DNA from: a virus
IMG/VR virus record: IMGVR_UViG_3300028393_001967
DNA: 64,000 nt
Reading direction: 5' to 3' (one strand)
Shown: in pieces, positions 58,218-64,000 of the stretch
Numbering within the stretch: position 1 is the stretch's first letter
How the letters are laid out: each line of letters begins with the position of its first letter
Program-made: the position numbers and the translations under genes
The notes under the pieces: generated by a model
What the model was told of the DNA's origin: nothing
Databases searched by the model: none
Seen by the model: only the letters and a program-made list of their open reading frames with translations

Positions 58218-59051
58218 ATGATTAGTGTTCATTTAGGCGGAAGGATTGGAAATCATTTATGGATGTATGCTGTTGCTAGAACAGTAGCAGAGCATTGTGG
58301 TTTTGATTATCACATTCCTAGAGATTTTTTAGGTAAAGATATTTTTAATGCAGATCTTGGTGTAGAACATTGCCAAGTAGATCGAGTATATACTGAGCGC
58401 AATGGATGGGAGCAGTTTTACGAACCACAAATTTGGAACATTGAAGATAATACAAAACTTCACGGTTGGTGGCAAACTGAAAAATATATTATCAATAACA
58501 AACGCAACATTCAGCAATGGTTTACTCAGAAAGACCCTAACGTAGGGTTATTAGATCAACTTCAAATAGATGACGATACTTGTGTTATTAACTTCCGTGG
58601 AGAAGATTATAAAGGTGTTCATTTCTTATATTTGCCAGAACAGTATTATAGAGATTCAATTAATGAAATGCGTAAGATAAACCCCAATATGAAATTTGTG
58701 GTTATTACCAATGATGTTGCTGAAGCTAATAGACTATTCCCCGAATTCCCTGCATATCATTTTGGTCAAAAGGATGACTTTTATATTGTTAGTCAAGCCA
58801 AATATCTAATTATTGTAAACTCTACATTCAGCTGGTGGGCAGCTTGGCTCAATGATCGCAGTAAATTTACCATTGCTCCCAAATATTGGTTTAGATATAA
58901 TATTGATAACGGCTGGTGGTGCGGTAACGACATAATTACACACGGTTGGCATTATATGCAAAAGAGCGGCAAGTTGCAGTCGTCAAATGAATGTTTGCGT
59001 GAACAGTCCTTGCAGGATCTTAAAGACTTCCCGCACAATCGTGATTACTAA
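58218..59051 (+). CDS. GT11 alpha-1,2-fucosyltransferase-like protein
   Basis: GRIGN..+.YA, G.WQ.EKY, R..DY, NSTFSWWAAWL, P..WF. Confidence 0.85.
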   Translation: MISVHLGGRIGNHLWMYAVARTVAEHCGFDYHIPRDFLGKDIFNADLGVEHCQVDRVYTERNGWEQFYEPQIWNIEDNTKLHGWWQTEKYIINNKRNIQQWFTQKDPNVGLLDQLQIDDDTCVINFRGEDYKGVHFLYLPEQYYRDSINEMRKINPNMKFVVITNDVAEANRLFPEFPAYHFGQKDDFYIVSQAKYLIIVNSTFSWWAAWLNDRSKFTIAPKYWFRYNIDNGWWCGNDIITHGWHYMQKSGKLQSSNECLREQSLQDLKDFPHNRDY

Positions 59052-59191
59052 ATTGTTGTATTTTTACAACAAAAAGTGTTGACAACTGTACAGCACTCAT
59101 ATACAATAGAGACTTGTTAGTTAGAAAACACCAGTTTTTAACCAGTGTTTAGAAAAAAGACTAAATAAATTGTCAAAAACATAAAAAGTGC

Positions 59192-59220
59192 TTGACAACA
59201 GGCATAAATAAATGTACAAT
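59192..59220 (+). promoter_or_regulatory. Sigma70 promoter of the tRNA operon, with a TAAATA late motif in its spacer; a second TTGACA-17-TACAAT lies at ~59079
   Basis: TTGACA-17-TACAAT. Confidence 0.8.
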
Positions 59221-59274
59221 TAACACATACACTAGAAACAGTGTATAATTTTTAAAGAGAAAACGGAAACTAAA

Positions 59275-59418
59275 ATGCAATCGCAACAAAGACATTTACA
59301 ACTAGGGACAGCAAAACAGCTGGGCAATTGCCCCGCCGTATTGTGGTCTGCGTTTAATATGTCAAGTTATGATCGCACACCAGAGATTACGATCGGGGTC
59401 CGGGAGGACTTAATGTAA
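59275..59418 (+). CDS. Putative attenuator leader peptide, 47 aa, containing all 20 amino acids
   Basis: MQSQQRHLQLGTAKQLGNCPAVLWSAFNMSSYDRTPEITIGVREDLM; its 3' end is the 5' arm of the antiterminator. Confidence 0.65.
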   Translation: MQSQQRHLQLGTAKQLGNCPAVLWSAFNMSSYDRTPEITIGVREDLM

Positions 59419-59479
59419 ATGTAAGTTTACACTAACTCCACAGGACCCCAGGATTAAGAACCCTGGGGTTTTTTGTTTT
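59395..59479 (+). terminator. Attenuator: antiterminator (59395-59449) overlapping an intrinsic terminator (59445-59479)
   Basis: GGGGTCC/GGACCCC competes with ACCCCAGG/CCTGGGGT followed by TTTTTGTTTT. Confidence 0.75.
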
Positions 59480-59729
59480 AGCGTTGGTATAGTGTGAAGA
59501 ACAGGTAACGAGGACCTGGCCCCGCACTTAAAACATGGGGCAAACGGGCGGTGGCGAGGATGGCTTATCTTCTTGTAGATAAAAAAATTCGTCATATTAA
59601 AGCAAATTGTTGCACGGGCATCCCTTTGACGGGTGTTGTCGAAGCATAGCTAAACAGTTTGTTTTAATATACACATTGAGCTGACAGGGGCTGTGATGCC
59701 GCAGACAGTGTGTTTAATTAAATAAGTGT

Positions 59730-59945
59730 ATGTCTAATAAACAAAAAGAATATGCTGGTAGGCTATTAAAAATAGCATCCCAGCAGGCACATCACAAACT
59801 ACCCAATGGTTCAAAAGAAGAACTATTGATTTATCAACTGGGTTTTGTTGTTGGAATTTTGTCTAGATATGCACCCAATGATATTACCATTCATCAAGAC
59901 ATTAAAATTCTTGAAGAATATTTAGGTATCAATATTAAAGAATAA
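59730..59945 (+). CDS. Hypothetical protein
   Basis: TAAATA 5 nt upstream. Confidence 0.55.
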   Translation: MSNKQKEYAGRLLKIASQQAHHKLPNGSKEELLIYQLGFVVGILSRYAPNDITIHQDIKILEEYLGINIKE

Positions 59946-59947
59946 TT

Positions 59948-60036
59948 GGAGTGTGTTCCCTGTTGCCGGCTGTAACCCGGTAGCCTTTATTAAGCAGGGT
60001 GGCTGGCAAGTGGTTCGATTCCATCACGCTTCACCA
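59948..60036 (+). tRNA. Atypical tRNA-Tyr(GTA)-like gene lacking a normal D-arm
   Basis: Acceptor stem, anticodon loop CTGTAAC, long V-arm, TTCGA loop, CCA. Confidence 0.55.
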
Positions 60037-60042
60037 ATTTAC

Positions 60043-60118
60043 ATCGCGGTGGACTTCTGGGTTAGGTCACTAGGCTTTCATCCTAGCTAGGCGGGTTCGA
60101 TTCCCGTCCGCGATACCA
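60043..60118 (+). tRNA. tRNA-Glu(TTC)
   Basis: Cloverleaf, loop CTTTCAT, CCA. Confidence 0.85.
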
Positions 60119-60126
60119 AAGATAAT

Positions 60127-60212
60127 GGATGTGTAGGAAAACTGGTAACCCCAGAAGACTGTAAATCTTCCGCCTTACGGCACTGTTGGTTCGACTCCAA
60201 CCGCATCCACCA
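60127..60212 (+). tRNA. tRNA-Tyr(GTA)
   Basis: Loop CTGTAAA, V-arm, CCA. Confidence 0.9.
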
Positions 60213-60220
60213 AAAGTAAT

Positions 60221-60295
60221 GGGCTGATAGTGATAATGGGAGCACAGGGGCTTTGCAAGCCTTTAGTCGGGGTTCGATCCCCCGTCGGTCCACCA
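60221..60295 (+). tRNA. tRNA-Ala(TGC)
   Basis: Loop TTTGCAA, G3-U70, CCA. Confidence 0.9.
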
Positions 60296-60302
60296 AGTTT
60301 AT

Positions 60303-60387
60303 GGATAGTAGTGTCGCTGGGCGCGAGCTGGTTTGCTAAACCGGTCTACTGGAAACGGTAACAGTTCGATTCTGTTGCTATCCACCA
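60303..60387 (+). tRNA. tRNA-Ser(GCT)
   Basis: Loop TTGCTAA, V-arm, CCA. Confidence 0.8.
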
Positions 60388-60394
60388 AGTTAAT

Positions 60395-60469
60395 GGTCTC
60401 GTCATATAGTGGTTATTATACCGGCCTGTCTAGTCGGATATCGGGGTTCGATTCCCCGCGGGATCGCCA
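60395..60469 (+). tRNA. tRNA-Asp(GTC)
   Basis: Loop CTGTCTA, GCCA end. Confidence 0.9.
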
Positions 60470-60478
60470 AGTTTTTAT

Positions 60479-60553
60479 TGCCGCGTAACTCAGAGGCAGA
60501 GTAATCGCTTGATAAGCGATAAGTCGACATTTCGAAATTGTCCGTGGCAACCA
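60479..60553 (+). tRNA. tRNA-Ile(GAT)
   Basis: Loop TTGATAA, CCA. Confidence 0.85.
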
Positions 60554-60558
60554 ATTAT

Positions 60559-60634
60559 GCTCAGTTCGTCTATCGGTTTAGGACGCTGCCCTTTCAAGGC
60601 GGAAAGACGGGTTCGATTCCCGTACTGAGCACCA
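60559..60634 (+). tRNA. tRNA-Glu(TTC), second copy
   Basis: Loop CTTTCAA, CCA. Confidence 0.9.
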
Positions 60635-60644
60635 TGTTTTTTGT

Positions 60645-60718
60645 TGGCGCATTGTGTAATGGTAGCACAACAGACTTTGACTCTGTTAGTCTAGGTTCGA
60701 TCCCTAGTGCGCCTGCCA
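60645..60718 (+). tRNA. tRNA-Gln(TTG)
   Basis: Loop CTTTGAC, GCCA. Confidence 0.9.
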
Positions 60719-60725
60719 AGTTTAT

Positions 60726-60800
60726 ATCGCGTTCGTATAGTGGAAAATACACGATCCTACGAAGTTCGGAACGGTGGTTCGATTCCATCACGCGATACCA
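60726..60800 (+). tRNA. tRNA-Arg(ACG)
   Basis: Loop CTACGAA, CCA. Confidence 0.85.
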
Positions 60801-60809
60801 AAAATTTAT

Positions 60810-60885
60810 TCCATCTTAGTATTCTCGGTGAGTACCCCCGGCTGTTAACCGGAAGAGGTTGGTTCGAATCCAACAGATGGAGCCA
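60810..60885 (+). tRNA. tRNA-Asn(GTT)
   Basis: Loop CTGTTAA, GCCA. Confidence 0.9.
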
Positions 60886-60988
60886 ATATCGAAATACACT
60901 GATTGTTTAGGAGTGGGGGATACGAACCACGTTAAACAAATAAGTCTACAAAAGCCTAAGCAATAGCGCAACAGTATATTTCAATATT

Positions 60989-61063
60989 GGGGGCAGCAGT
61001 GGGCTGCGGCGTTCCCTTGCAAGGATCGTGACTAGAAGGATTCGATTTCCTCGGCCTCCACCA
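60989..61063 (+). tRNA. Divergent tRNA-Ala(TGC)-like gene
   Basis: G3-U70, loop CTTGCAA, irregular arms, CCA. Confidence 0.55.
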
Positions 61064-61072
61064 AAGATAAAT

Positions 61073-61149
61073 GCACTGGTACCAGAGAGGCCTAATGGCA
61101 TGGATTGCAAATCCGTTGTTCGGGGGTTCGAATCCCTCCCAGTGCTCCA
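61073..61149 (+). tRNA. tRNA-Cys(GCA)
   Basis: Loop TTGCAAA, U73, CCA. Confidence 0.9.
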
Positions 61150-61156
61150 AGTTTAT

Positions 61157-61230
61157 GCGGGTATGATGTAATGGTAACCTGAAACCTTGCCAAGGTTTAT
61201 TCGCGAGTTCGATTCTCGCTATCCGCTCCA
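61157..61230 (+). tRNA. tRNA-Gly(GCC)
   Basis: Loop TTGCCAA, TCCA. Confidence 0.9.
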
Positions 61231-61391
61231 ATTTTTGAGATAGACGATGGGATTGAGTCCCTTGTATTCTAGCGCATTGTGCTGATGCGTGACACACCAG
61301 TAGAACTGTACAAGGTCAATATAAACTCTCCCATTCGAGACAAGCCAATGAGTCCTTCAGAAAGATAGTTGGTCTCTCAAAAACCTATAAT

Positions 61392-61467
61392 GCAACCTTA
61401 GCAAATGTGGTCATTGCGGTCGCCTGAAGAGCGATGGAAGCAGGTTCGATCCCTGCAGGTTGCACCA
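61392..61467 (+). tRNA. tRNA-Phe(GAA)
   Basis: Loop CTGAAGA, CCA. Confidence 0.85.
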
Positions 61468-61472
61468 ATTAT

Positions 61473-61547
61473 GTATCCCTAGTGTTAACGGCAGCACGAC
61501 AGTCTCCAAAACTGCTAGTCAAGGTTCGAATCCTTGGGGGTATGCCA
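61473..61547 (+). tRNA. tRNA-Trp(CCA)
   Basis: Loop CTCCAAA, GCCA. Confidence 0.9.
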
Positions 61548-61554
61548 ATTTTAT

Positions 61555-61633
61555 CTGTGTGTAATGTCAGCCAGGTCAGACGGCTCGCCTTGGAAGTGAG
61601 AGGTCGCAGGTTCGAATCCTGCCACACAGACCA
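61555..61633 (+). tRNA. tRNA-Pro(TGG)
   Basis: Loop CTTGGAA, CCA. Confidence 0.9.
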
Positions 61634-61637
61634 ATTC

Positions 61638-61712
61638 GCCCTTTTATCCTTAATGGTAGAGGTCCTGTTTTGTAAGCAGGGTGTGTGGGTTCGATTCCTG
61701 CAAGGGGCACCA
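61638..61712 (+). tRNA. tRNA-Thr(TGT)
   Basis: Loop TTTGTAA, CCA. Confidence 0.9.
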
Positions 61713-61719
61713 AACAAAT

Positions 61720-61806
61720 GGAAGATAGGGACGCTGGGCGTCAACCGGTTTCGAAGTCCGGCCCACTCTGCAAAGGGTGACTGTTCGATTCAGTTATCTT
61801 CCTCCA
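61720..61806 (+). tRNA. tRNA-Ser(CGA)
   Basis: Loop TTCGAAG, V-arm, CCA. Confidence 0.75.
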
Positions 61807-61815
61807 ACAGTTTAT

Positions 61816-61905
61816 GGAAGCGTGGCAGAGCCCGGTTTATTGTACCTGACTTGAAATCAGACGTGTCGTAAGGCACCGTGAGTTCGAATCTCACCGCTTC
61901 CGCCA
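61816..61905 (+). tRNA. tRNA-Ser(TGA)
   Basis: Loop CTTGAAA, V-arm, GCCA. Confidence 0.9.
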
Positions 61906-61910
61906 TATAT

Positions 61911-62000
61911 GGAAAATAGAAGTGCTGGGCACTAAGCAACTTGGAAAGTTGTTCCACTTGTGATGAGCAGGTGACAGTTCGATTCTGTTATTTTCCTCCA
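61911..62000 (+). tRNA. tRNA-Ser(GGA)
   Basis: Loop TTGGAAA, V-arm, CCA. Confidence 0.8.
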
Positions 62001-62012
62001 CTAAATAAGTGT

Positions 62013-62756
62013 ATGAGAATACAGGAACTATTGGTTGAAACTGCCGAAGATGATCGAGCTATCTTGAGTCTTGCAGACGCCATTTACAATTATCTTCAGT
62101 CCTACGCTGATACAGAGTTGGACTATGATGAAACTGGCGTGATACACATAGGACGTATAGGTGATCTTTTTGATACTCCTATTGAGATACTGAATAGTGT
62201 GAGACTGGAAATAACACCAGATGAAGCTATAGTGGATTTGGCACGTAGACTATACGGTCGTGCTACTCCAGCAGATAGTCATTTTGGACAATGGGACCCT
62301 ATGAACAAGGCCATAAGCCTAAATGCTGATTATTTGAGTTCTAAACGTATGCGTAATGTTATTGCACACGAACTAAGACACGCTATGGATGATGCTAAAA
62401 GTCTAAATAGGGCTAATCAAAGTACACGTTATCGTACAGCAAGAAGTGTTCAGCATCAAGCAGATCAAGATGGCGCTTATCAAGCACAGCCTGCGGAGAT
62501 CAACGCTAGATTCGTTGAAGCATTAAATTTACTAGTGCCCGTGATTGCCAAACTGAGCACATTGGATTCTACTAGTTTTAGAACTAAGATGACTGCATAT
62601 CTAAACCGTGCATTTGAACTTAAAGACATTGCAGATTATTATCCAGAAAAAACAGCAAATGCTCACTATAGAAGACTGCTTCAAAGAGCTTGGGACTTTA
62701 TCAACAAAGAACTGGCTCACGTGAAATCCCAGTCCTCTGATACTGCTGACACATAA
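62013..62756 (+). CDS. HEXXH metallopeptidase-like late protein with capsid-targeting-like N-terminus
   Basis: MRIQELLVE after TAAATA; IAHELRHAMD; Y...P.EINAR. Confidence 0.7.
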   Translation: MRIQELLVETAEDDRAILSLADAIYNYLQSYADTELDYDETGVIHIGRIGDLFDTPIEILNSVRLEITPDEAIVDLARRLYGRATPADSHFGQWDPMNKAISLNADYLSSKRMRNVIAHELRHAMDDAKSLNRANQSTRYRTARSVQHQADQDGAYQAQPAEINARFVEALNLLVPVIAKLSTLDSTSFRTKMTAYLNRAFELKDIADYYPEKTANAHYRRLLQRAWDFINKELAHVKSQSSDTADT

Positions 62757-62761
62757 TTTTT

Positions 62762-62835
62762 AGGTCCTTAGTTTAATGGCAGAACACTGCTTTGACTTGG
62801 CGAAGATGAAAGTTCGATTCTTTCAGGACCTACCA
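62762..62835 (+). tRNA. tRNA-Val(GAC) with weak anticodon stem
   Basis: Acceptor AGGTCCT/AGGACCT, loop TTGACTT, CCA. Confidence 0.65.
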
Positions 62836-62891
62836 AACTCTCCCTTACATACGGAGTACAATAGGACAAGTAGTATGTAAACTAATACAGG

Positions 62892-62920
62892 TTGACAACT
62901 GACCATGATAGTTGTATAAT
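62892..62920 (+). promoter_or_regulatory. Consensus sigma70 promoter of the tRNA-Lys unit
   Basis: TTGACA-17-TATAAT. Confidence 0.85.
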
Positions 62921-62951
62921 AGATACTTAAACAAACAAAAGAGGTAACACA

Positions 62952-62981
62952 ATGAAACGTACTAAAGGTGCTAAAATGTAG
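62952..62981 (+). CDS. Lys-rich leader peptide MKRTKGAKM
   Basis: RBS GAGGT 6 nt upstream; three AAA codons; directly precedes two tRNA-Lys genes. Confidence 0.65.
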   Translation: MKRTKGAKM

Positions 62982-63046
62982 TGTCAACCGTTGACCCCGT
63001 ATATGGTCTAAGGTTGGCACTTTAAAGACAATTTAATATGCACAAC

Positions 63047-63121
63047 CCACTCTAAACTTTGAAGGTGAAGTCCTGCCTCTTAAGCAGAGAGAACTGAGTT
63101 CGAGTCTCAGAGAGTGGACCA
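63047..63121 (+). tRNA. tRNA-Lys(CTT)
   Basis: Acceptor CCACTCT/AGAGTGG, loop CTCTTAA, CCA. Confidence 0.85.
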
Positions 63122-63125
63122 TATA

Positions 63126-63200
63126 CGGGGTATAATTCAATGGCTAGAATAACCGGCTTTTACCCGGTCTATCAGGGTTCGAGTCCCTGTGCCCCGACCA
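63126..63200 (+). tRNA. tRNA-Lys(TTT)
   Basis: Acceptor CGGGGTA/TGCCCCG, loop CTTTTAC, CCA. Confidence 0.85.
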
Positions 63201-63326
63201 TATAAAAACACATTATACCAACTGACAATACCGTAACTGGGAAACTAAGGTTGTGTTTTAGTGTGTTTCTATATGGTCTTAACAGGAGTAATTACCCTGA
63301 TCCATAATCGGGAGTCATGACCCGAT

Positions 63327-63429
63327 GAACTCGTAGTGATGGAATGGTCAAACATAGGCCTCTTATAGGGCCGGTGGAGTTAAATGCCCACTTGCAGGTT
63401 TCGAAATCCTGCCTACAATGAGTTCGCCA
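63327..63429 (+). tRNA. Aberrant long-V-arm tRNA-like element (identity unclear)
   Basis: GAACTCG/TGAGTTC acceptor plus extra helix, TTCGAA T-loop, irregular anticodon loop, GCCA. Confidence 0.4.
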
Positions 63430-63520
63430 TATATAAACATACTAAAAATACCGTTATATCACAGTTGGTGCGTAGTGCCAACCAAGCGGACAGTTGAGTG
63501 ATAGTAGTATGTTTATATAT

Positions 63521-63596
63521 GGTGATGTAGCATAGCGGCCAATGCAGCTCCTTCATACGGAAAAGATCGTGAGTTCGAGTCTCACCATCACCACCA
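63521..63596 (+). tRNA. tRNA with CAT anticodon (Met or Ile2)
   Basis: Loop TTCATAC, CCA. Confidence 0.8.
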
Positions 63597-63654
63597 AGTT
63601 TCATAATGGTTTGAACTCTAAATAGATAAGTACAGTTATAACTCCAAGGCTAAT

Positions 63655-64000
63655 ATGCTGCACCTAATTACTTCTGACACAGATAATTTTTTCAACTTCT
63701 TAAATGAAGATCCTGTTCGACCTTCTATTCCTACAATGAGTAGAATTGGTGCTAATCGAGATATCTTTGTATATCGTGACGAAGAAGGTAGTGTTAAGGC
63801 AATCACTTGTGTAAGTTATCAAGACTTTGTTCCAACAACGGAACAAGAATTGTTTACAGTAAATACTGAACCCAGTGTTGCAGTGTTTTACACCATTTGG
63901 AGTTATGCTCCTGGTGCTGGCCGTTCGTTGATTTTTAAAGCAGTTGAACACATTAAGGAAAACAAGCCATCAATAAAAAGGTTTGTTACATTGAGTCCAC
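63655..64000 (+). CDS. GNAT/malonyl-CoA-decarboxylase-like protein (3' truncated)
   Basis: MLHLITS...AVFYTIWS..GAGR.LI...FVTLSP, open to the window end. Confidence 0.6.
   Translation, partial: MLHLITSDTDNFFNFLNEDPVRPSIPTMSRIGANRDIFVYRDEEGSVKAITCVSYQDFVPTTEQELFTVNTEPSVAVFYTIWSYAPGAGRSLIFKAVEHIKENKPSIKRFVTLSP

Follow-up and report, generated by a model that had tools for sequence, protein, structure and literature searches.

The DNA analysed here is a stretch of 64,000 nucleotides (nt) of the IMG/VR virus record IMGVR_UViG_3300028393_001967, which we call the window. Its last 5 kb form a phage tRNA array that holds 23 of the 24 tRNA genes detected in the window by ARAGORN. We studied a module within this array (62892–63200, + strand), in which a promoter and a short open reading frame (mini-ORF) with lysine codons precede two tRNA-Lys genes. 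The leader RNA contains three strands (r1, r2 and r3) that can be combined into two competing hairpins, HP1 and HP2. The apex of HP1 is an antisense segment that can alternatively form a long-range helix (LR) with the junction of the two tRNAs. The tRNA-Lys(CTT) and tRNA-Lys(TTT) genes are referred to as tRNA 1 and tRNA 2, and the features of the module are as follows.

62892–62920, + strand: sigma-70 consensus promoter, TTGACA-17-TATAAT, matching 12 of 12 consensus positions
62941–62945, + strand: Shine-Dalgarno sequence GAGGT, 6 nt 5′ of the ATG
62952–62981, + strand: mini-ORF MKRTKGAKM-stop (ATG AAA CGT ACT AAA GGT GCT AAA ATG TAG), with Lys AAA codons at 62955–57, 62964–66 and 62973–75 and the TAG stop at 62979–81
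62980–63021, + strand: hairpin HP1; lower stem r1 (62980–62989) with r2 (63012–63021), upper stem 62993–96 with 63005–08, loop 62997–63004
62994–63008, + strand: antisense segment at the HP1 apex, with the anti-CCA box UGGUC; exact 15-nt reverse complement of 63117–63131
63012–63047, + strand: alternative hairpin HP2; r2 (63012–63019) with r3 (63039–63047)
63047–63121, + strand: tRNA-Lys(CTT) (ARAGORN), with an encoded CCA and an unusual acceptor end of C1-G72 and C2-G71
63117–63131, + strand: target of LR, comprising G72-A73-C-C-A of tRNA 1, the spacer UAUA and nt 1–6 of tRNA 2
63126–63200, + strand: tRNA-Lys(TTT) (ARAGORN; Rfam tRNA model RF00005, 63.8 bits), with an encoded CCA

Several of these elements had been described in an earlier note on this DNA. 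The promoter (a full consensus match), the ribosome-binding site and nine-codon frame, the hairpin overlapping the leader stop, the exact complementarity of 62994–63008 to 63117–63131 and both tRNA genes lie where that note had placed them. Transcription probably starts near 62927. The 5′ arm of HP1 begins within the stop codon, the A and G of TAG being engaged in the first pairs. The Rfam tRNA model did not report the tRNA-Lys(CTT) of the window at E ≤ 1. In the window, only two loci contain exact 15-mer inverted repeats no more than 200 nt apart. Dinucleotide shuffling gave a mean of 0.06 such repeats over 100 shuffles, with any at all in 2 of them; therefore, a chance origin is unlikely.

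Homologues were collected by two pattern scans of IMG/VR that were anchored on different parts of the leader and returned 47 and more than 119 loci. The first pattern fixed GGTTGGCAC, and the second fixed TAGTGTC and CCCGTAT. More than 120 IMG/VR phage contigs carry the module. Once chance matches and duplicates were removed, 93 distinct modules were left, and the first scan had given 38 distinct sequences. Every distinct module consists of a mini-ORF, a hairpin and Lys tRNAs, usually in the order CTT and then TTT; the TTT gene comes first in two modules (L010 and L027) and stands alone in one (L043). What precedes the module differs among the homologues and may be a consensus promoter of its own, a 42-codon ORF or, immediately adjacent, another tRNA. 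At least 13 of 38 homologues have a promoter similar to that of the window, TTGACAAC...GTATAAT, 5′ of the module. A scan of 185,579 prokaryote genomes (596 Gb) produced 38 pattern matches, of which two were real modules, both on short contigs of metagenome-assembled genomes. The module is therefore a phage element. We did not infer a host from these two contigs (1.8 and 3.9 kb, from bins assigned to Bacteroidetes and Polynucleobacter) because the binning of such short contigs is unreliable. The module forms a small, self-contained unit that abounds in freshwater phages.

The mini-ORF has the appearance of a translated frame. The ATG and an in-frame TAG are kept in all 93 distinct homologues, and a Shine-Dalgarno-like motif is located 4–12 nt ahead of the ATG in 88 of them. 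The length of the frame changes by whole codons only, with six codons in 50 modules, seven in 29, eight in 13 and nine in one. The string TAGTGTC belonged to the second search pattern; the first scan left the TAG free, yet it is present in all 38 of the distinct sequences from that scan. The 93 homologues encode 29 different peptides of the general form M-K-...-K-X-TAG, such as MKRAKR, MKRSGKR, MKRGKL, MKASAKQ, MKPTAKL and MKRKSRKL. Codon 2 is a Lys codon in every case (AAA in 85 and AAG in 8), and AAA stands two codons ahead of the stop in every case. At the last sense codon there are 14 variants, and free variation, with many synonymous changes, is seen in the middle of the frame. The earlier note had named beforehand a lack of conservation of the Lys codons as a result that would count against its idea; both positions proved to be invariant across the 29 peptides. 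The ATG-stop ending, which the note had regarded as a feature shared with a second leader, is found in only 2 of the 93 homologues.

The frame ends in a set of pairings that change together. The pairing percentages of HP1 were obtained from an alignment of 81 sequences. In this hairpin, 87–100% of the alignment cells are paired, and the RNAalifold consensus, calculated on an alignment without the 3′ half of tRNA 2, consists of HP1 and the cloverleaf of tRNA 1. Compensating changes convert AACC/GGTT of r1/r2 into ATCC/GGAT and, in one module, into GACT/AGTC. The hairpin that hides the antisense segment, as the earlier note had proposed, thus covaries across the homologues. However, that note had missed the key alternative partner, HP2, which makes the arrangement a full two-state switch. 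The sequence GGTTGG in r2 is complementary both to r1 and to CCAACC of r3, the six bases of which end at nt 2 of tRNA 1. The r3 strand ends at nt 1 of tRNA 1 in the window and at nt 2 in most homologues. Where r2 contains GGTTGG (74 modules), r3 contains ..AACC in 73, and the remaining module has TCAATC, which still pairs at six of six positions. Where r2 reads (G/A)GATGG (10 modules), r3 reads ..ATCC in all 10 and r1 reads CAT.. in 9 of those 10. The three strands, CA(A/T)CC in r1, GG(T/A)TGG in r2 and CCA(A/T)CC in r3, therefore vary in concert. HP2 encloses a small A/U stem (63022–26 with 63032–36), and this inner stem also covaries (CGTAA/TTACG versus ATTAA/TTAAT). A further pairing suggested in the earlier note, between the Lys-Gly-Ala-Lys codons (62965–62974) and 63014–63023, was discarded; it rests on an insertion that is present only in the window and is not conserved.

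The complementarity between the apex and the tRNA junction is also retained. In LR, 96.3% of the alignment cells are paired, versus 27–46% when the 3′ partner is slid by 1–3 columns. The covariation and conservation check that the earlier note had called for gave a clear answer, since approximately 90 distinct homologues keep the pairing, through compensating substitutions as well as matched insertions and deletions (indels). One pair of LR alternates between U-A (29), C-G (26) and U-G (11). In 68 of 85 modules, the leader spacer is the exact complement of the junction spacer, with lengths of 3, 4 or 5 nt (TAT/ATA, TATT/AATA and TATAT/ATATA). The predicted length of LR is 12–20 pairs across the homologues, and the helix is under selection. 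G-U pairs are tolerated on the + strand only, indicating that the pairing acts in RNA and not as a DNA structure. The modules with a changed gene order are informative in this respect. In the two with the TTT gene first (L010:2360–2759 and L027:7581–7980) and the one with the TTT gene alone (L043:1497–1896), the apex is altered, to CCCAUCGUAUGG in two of the three and to CCCAUGUACGG in the third, and it still complements the 5′ strand of tRNA-Lys(TTT).

The cloverleaf helices of tRNA-Lys(CTT) covary strongly across 81 homologues, and its C1C2 and G71G72 are fixed in 80–81 of the 81 aligned. The body of this tRNA is replaced by at least six quite different sequences among the homologues while its ends are fixed. 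These fixed ends are the nucleotides engaged by HP2 and LR.

Folding calculations predict that the RNA has two near-equal states. For transcripts of the window that end anywhere up to 63125, HP1 is the minimum-energy fold; HP2 and LR take its place once 63132 is included. The full precursor of the window has a calculated energy of −84.6 kcal/mol with HP2 and LR, compared with −76.5 kcal/mol when HP1 is enforced. The full-length fold contains LR and HP2 in 77 of 86 homologues. When the transcripts of the 86 homologues are cut ahead of the 3′ end of tRNA 1, 46 fold into HP1 and 39 into HP2. A poised switch would be expected to give such a nearly even division.

We therefore considered how the two states could affect the tRNAs. 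In state A, r1 would be paired with r2, the apex would be folded on itself within HP1, and C1C2 of r3 would pair with G71G72 of tRNA 1. This would leave the CCA of tRNA 1 unengaged; the 5′ strand of tRNA 2, likewise free, would pair with its own 3′ strand, and both cloverleaves could form and be processed. In state B, r2 would pair with r3 (HP2), taking C1 and C2 away from tRNA 1 and leaving r1 unpaired. The freed apex would pair with G72-ACCA of tRNA 1, with the spacer and with the first 6–7 nt of tRNA-Lys(UUU). Both acceptor stems would then depart from the native form, with burial of one CCA end and of the two RNase P sites. Bacterial RNase P RNA pairs with the 3′-CCA of tRNA (PMC1874595); therefore, state B, with its CCA buried, would be expected to be poorly processed.

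The choice between these states may be made by the ribosome. A ribosome that finishes the frame would uncover r2, because the stop of the mini-ORF lies inside r1, and the nascent RNA would be pushed to HP2 and then to LR. A ribosome held at AAA, either at codon 2 or two codons before the stop, would leave HP1 intact and lead to state A. Unwinding of mRNA by the ribosome extends approximately as far as +11 to +13 relative to the P-site. The predicted melting of r1 is accordingly 8–9 base pairs (bp) with TAG in the A site, 1–3 bp with the last AAA and none with codon 2. Plentiful Lys-tRNA would result in less maturation and scarce Lys-tRNA in more, which amounts to negative feedback. Among the Lys tRNAs, AAA is decoded solely by tRNA-Lys(UUU). 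The apex follows this sole reader of AAA when the gene order changes, so feedback on its supply is the simplest coherent reading.

Our preferred interpretation, to which we assign about an even chance of being correct, is therefore that a translation-controlled two-state RNA switch heads a phage tRNA-Lys precursor. A ribosome that reaches the stop would give a blocked precursor, and stalling at AAA would give one that can mature. This agrees in part with the earlier note, which had supposed that complete translation opens the hairpin and lets the antisense segment block both tRNAs. The frame, the codons and the pairings that it relied on are conserved; we infer the selection of the state by the ribosome and the block to maturation in state B.

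A search for similar leaders was extended to short frames with a ribosome-binding site ahead of 2,663 tRNAs from 138 sources, and leaders that look cognate to the following tRNA were found for Lys and Tyr only. The frames MVAI and MQRGWSCD.. were rejected as leaders; they precede unrelated tRNAs and look like spacer repeats. The Tyr counterpart is the frame MKRGYSM-stop or MKRGYSR-stop, which contains a Tyr codon and lies 45 nt 5′ of tRNA-Tyr(GTA) (L053:7261–7284, also L119, L123, L138, L139, L180 and L184). It shares the start ATGAAACGTGG with the Lys leader, and its stop also abuts a stem. In relatives without tRNA-Tyr downstream (L140, L179 and L181–L183), the frame is shifted by 1 nt and TAT is replaced in three of the five. 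Two further scans brought the number of distinct intact sequences to only two or three, which is too few for covariation. On these sequences, the Tyr leader fits the matching of codon to tRNA.

Lys and Tyr are also the tRNA types that have been described in phage counter-defence. The tRNA-Lys of phage T5 rescues infection from PARIS, in which the AriB nuclease cleaves host tRNA-Lys (PMC11464382), and phage tRNA-Tyr (T5/SP15) rescues infection from retron-Eco7 PtuAB (PMC11555353). Another study reports anticodon-loop changes by which phage tRNAs evade nucleases of the PrrC type (PMC10264068). Lys and Tyr are the two types that carry a mini-ORF leader in the present phage group, and they are plausible candidates for on-demand control by a phage because both have been shown in counter-defence. 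The module could thus serve an inducible counter-defence, in which loss of tRNA-Lys(UUU) to an attack of the PrrC or PARIS type would stall the leader ribosomes at AAA, hold the nascent precursor in HP1 and let the atypical Lys tRNAs of the phage mature on demand, with the Tyr paralogue acting likewise for tRNA-Tyr. We regard this extension as tentative and rather unlikely. In the counter-defence papers, expression is constitutive, in one case from a strong promoter, and a leader ORF or RNA switch is not described.

The layout of the module can be compared with known leader systems. Leader switches that respond to the ribosome are a textbook form of control for amino-acid and antibiotic-resistance genes. 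The trpL, hisL, pheL, leuL, thrL and ilvL attenuators have, like the module, a short translated leader with codons that match the regulated product. The end of their frame likewise overlaps strand 1 of exclusive 1:2 and 2:3 pairings, so that the position of the ribosome decides the RNA structure. The module has the corresponding parts: a conserved short leader ORF with a ribosome-binding site, start and stop; codons cognate to the product, followed by Lys tRNAs in every case; and exclusive r1:r2 and r2:r3 pairings, the first of which overlaps the end of the leader ORF. However, the module has no intrinsic terminator, and its "3:4" element is the tRNA acceptor stem. In addition, the tRNA ends are hidden by a fourth interaction, in which the apex pairs with the junction of the two tRNAs. 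The product is a tRNA and not a biosynthetic enzyme, and there are two or three separated AAA codons rather than a tandem run.

In the translational attenuation of ermC, cat and cmlA, a stalled leader ribosome remodels a downstream hairpin after transcription and without a terminator, as proposed for the module. In those systems, a drug causes the stall and the output is exposure of the Shine-Dalgarno sequence of a protein gene, whereas the leader of the module runs straight into two tRNA genes and the presumed signal is an aminoacyl-tRNA. T-box leaders resemble the module in being tied to one tRNA species, in the complementarity of UGGN to the NCCA of the tRNA and in a codon-like triplet for the same amino acid. 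Unlike a T-box, the module has no Rfam match, Stem I, specifier-loop architecture, terminator or sequestrator. Its codon lies within a conserved translated frame, and its pairing takes place inside the same precursor and reaches into the next tRNA. The RNase III leader-trailer stems of rRNAs and of T7 and T4 early transcripts also enclose a stable RNA by long-range pairing. LR differs in that nucleotides with a function in the tRNAs themselves (the CCA and the acceptor strand of the following tRNA) form part of it, and in that it competes with a conserved alternative hairpin under a stop codon. An RNase III stem has approximately 20 bp or more of double-stranded RNA, and 12–20 pairs are predicted for LR.

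Several considerations weigh against the switch interpretation. All of the homologues descend from one module; therefore, the link between Lys codons and Lys tRNAs has one evolutionary origin and not many. The A-to-T change in r1, r2 and r3 may represent only one or two events. The search patterns fixed parts of the leader; any given feature is free of this bias in one set only. AAA as codon 2 is common in well-translated genes generally, and the two Lys codons are not adjacent, unlike the codon runs of classic regulatory leaders. The energy model omits tRNA tertiary structure, so which state is truly lower is uncertain in these predictions. The only signal from RNA libraries consists of assembled contigs, which show neither ends nor strand. 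LR could be productive, providing a cleavage site between the two tRNAs, and not inhibitory. Finally, the benefit to a lytic phage of limiting its own tRNA is unexplained.

If LR is productive, it could be a processing or folding scaffold without any lysine sensing, either as an RNase III-like double-stranded cleavage site or as protection for the CCA. Translation of the mini-ORF would then merely help to remodel HP1 so that LR forms. The spacer between the tRNAs sits at the centre of LR, where cutting would separate the two tRNAs. Similar ACCA/UGGU stems of 18–25 bp occur downstream (63196–63220/63254–63278 and 63424–63444/63505–63525), the same trailer motif recurs in homologues, and the full precursors of the 77 homologues mentioned above are predicted to have LR with HP2 as their ground state. 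However, a scaffold leaves unexplained why AAA is invariant amid otherwise variable codons and why a covarying competing hairpin, HP1, is conserved to hide the apex. LR is also only 13–20 bp long and includes functional tRNA nucleotides, so that imprecise cleavage would damage both tRNAs. We consider the scaffold improbable, although it is the strongest of the alternatives. Classic transcription attenuation, with HP1 or HP2 as the terminator, would account for the trp-type layout of a leader ORF with cognate codons and 1:2 and 2:3 pairings. A terminator scan of 62892–63200 found nothing. HP1 is followed by AUUAAA, GUAAAA or UUUAAAG, HP2 abuts tRNA 1, and there is no U-tract in any homologue. 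The module thus has no terminator and is not a classic attenuator, and we regard this explanation as very unlikely.

The apex UGGU(C) is complementary to the (G)ACCA of both Lys tRNAs, and an invariant AAA stands at a fixed 3 nt ahead of the hairpin. These features raise the idea of direct sensing as in a T-box, where the apex UGGU would bind the ACCA of mature uncharged tRNA-Lys, AAA would be the specifier and the resemblance to an ORF would be incidental. A search of 58500–64000 with all Rfam families, including the T-box family RF00230, gave no match to the leader at E ≤ 1. The conserved Shine-Dalgarno sequence, ATG, whole-codon lengths and in-frame TAG would be superfluous for a specifier. 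Well past ACCA, the complementarity continues through the spacer and into tRNA 2 and is accompanied by matched indels, which points to pairing within the same transcript. By our own estimate, a stem of approximately 16 bp is also too short for the distance from anticodon to acceptor. Direct sensing of this kind is, in our judgement, highly improbable. The heavy shuffling of tRNA order in related phages, and the movement of the module as a unit behind promoters, ORFs and tRNAs, might instead suggest an element that works at the DNA level, such as a site for recombination or for an endonuclease in mobile tRNA cassettes, or else a repeat that arose by chance and has no function in RNA. This is the least credible explanation, given the restriction of tolerated G-U pairs to the + strand, the covariation, the matched indels and conserved reading frame, and the mean of only 0.06 such repeats per window in the shuffles.

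Other elements of the array surround the module. A trailer hairpin on the + strand (63196–63278) pairs the ACCA end of tRNA 2 and its trailer (63196–63220) with a second anti-CCA box (63254–63278) over 25 nt with 84% complementarity, and this second box adjoins the following RNA. Many homologues also contain the trailer motif ACCATATAAAAACAC together with its partner. In both downstream stems (21–25 nt each), the ACCA end and trailer pair with UAUAUGGU just 5′ of the next RNA, and these may be processing stems. Between them lies a tRNA-like cloverleaf of approximately 100 nt with a long variable arm (63279–63432, core 63327–63429; folding z-score −2.55). It has the T-arm GCAGG/CCUGC, a 3′ GCCA and an odd anticodon loop of 6–8 nt (CUUAUA), and it is flanked by an anti-CCA box (63270–78) and GCCAUAUAUAAACAUAC (63426–44). 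Neither ARAGORN nor Rfam called this cloverleaf. At 59330–59365, CCGTATTGTGGTCT is followed by TTTAATATG, which together resemble the apex of the Lys leader and the HP2 loop. They lie within a 47-codon frame (59275–59418) that the earlier note had likened to the Lys leader.

The window also codes for ribonucleotide reductase and many proteins of unknown function, as judged from PHROG family scans made for context. Freshwater and pond metagenomes contain contigs that are near-identical to the window. A cultured relative was not found, and a distant blastn search of 62836–63600 against 50,697 GenBank phage records returned only a 53-nt tRNA-like match. Five related IMG/VR contigs (L001–L005) were retrieved through a neighbouring protein, and their tRNA arrays are ordered differently. 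Compared with 59900–63600 of the window, they differ strongly in both the order and the content of the tRNA genes. The protein that flanks these arrays (61941–62756 in the window, with a weak metalloprotease-like match) is 77–80% identical between the phages; the tRNA cassettes are therefore apparently reshuffled often. Small parts of the window also occur in two metatranscriptome runs, in assembled contigs only. One of these contigs, of 139 nt, spans 63005–63143 and thus includes the leader, tRNA 1, the junction and the beginning of tRNA 2 in unprocessed form. We did not use this material as evidence because the contigs show neither ends, strand nor whether they originate from RNA or DNA.

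A full-text literature search with incomplete coverage revealed no published leader ORF or RNA switch on tRNA genes, and no case in which a tRNA is the regulated product or the hiding of tRNA ends is the output. The switch would thus belong to the leader controls that respond to the ribosome, and both its target and its output would be new. If this is true, the module is a compact sensor of approximately 100 nt for the supply of one aminoacyl-tRNA, and it would provide evidence for regulation at the step of tRNA maturation. It would also link the large tRNA sets of phages to the arms race over tRNA-cleaving defences, for which Lys and Tyr tRNAs are known targets. Should the counter-defence role hold as well, ribosome stalling would be the direct sensor by which the virus detects tRNA-targeting immunity, and the regulated step would be the folding and processing of tRNA rather than transcription or translation.

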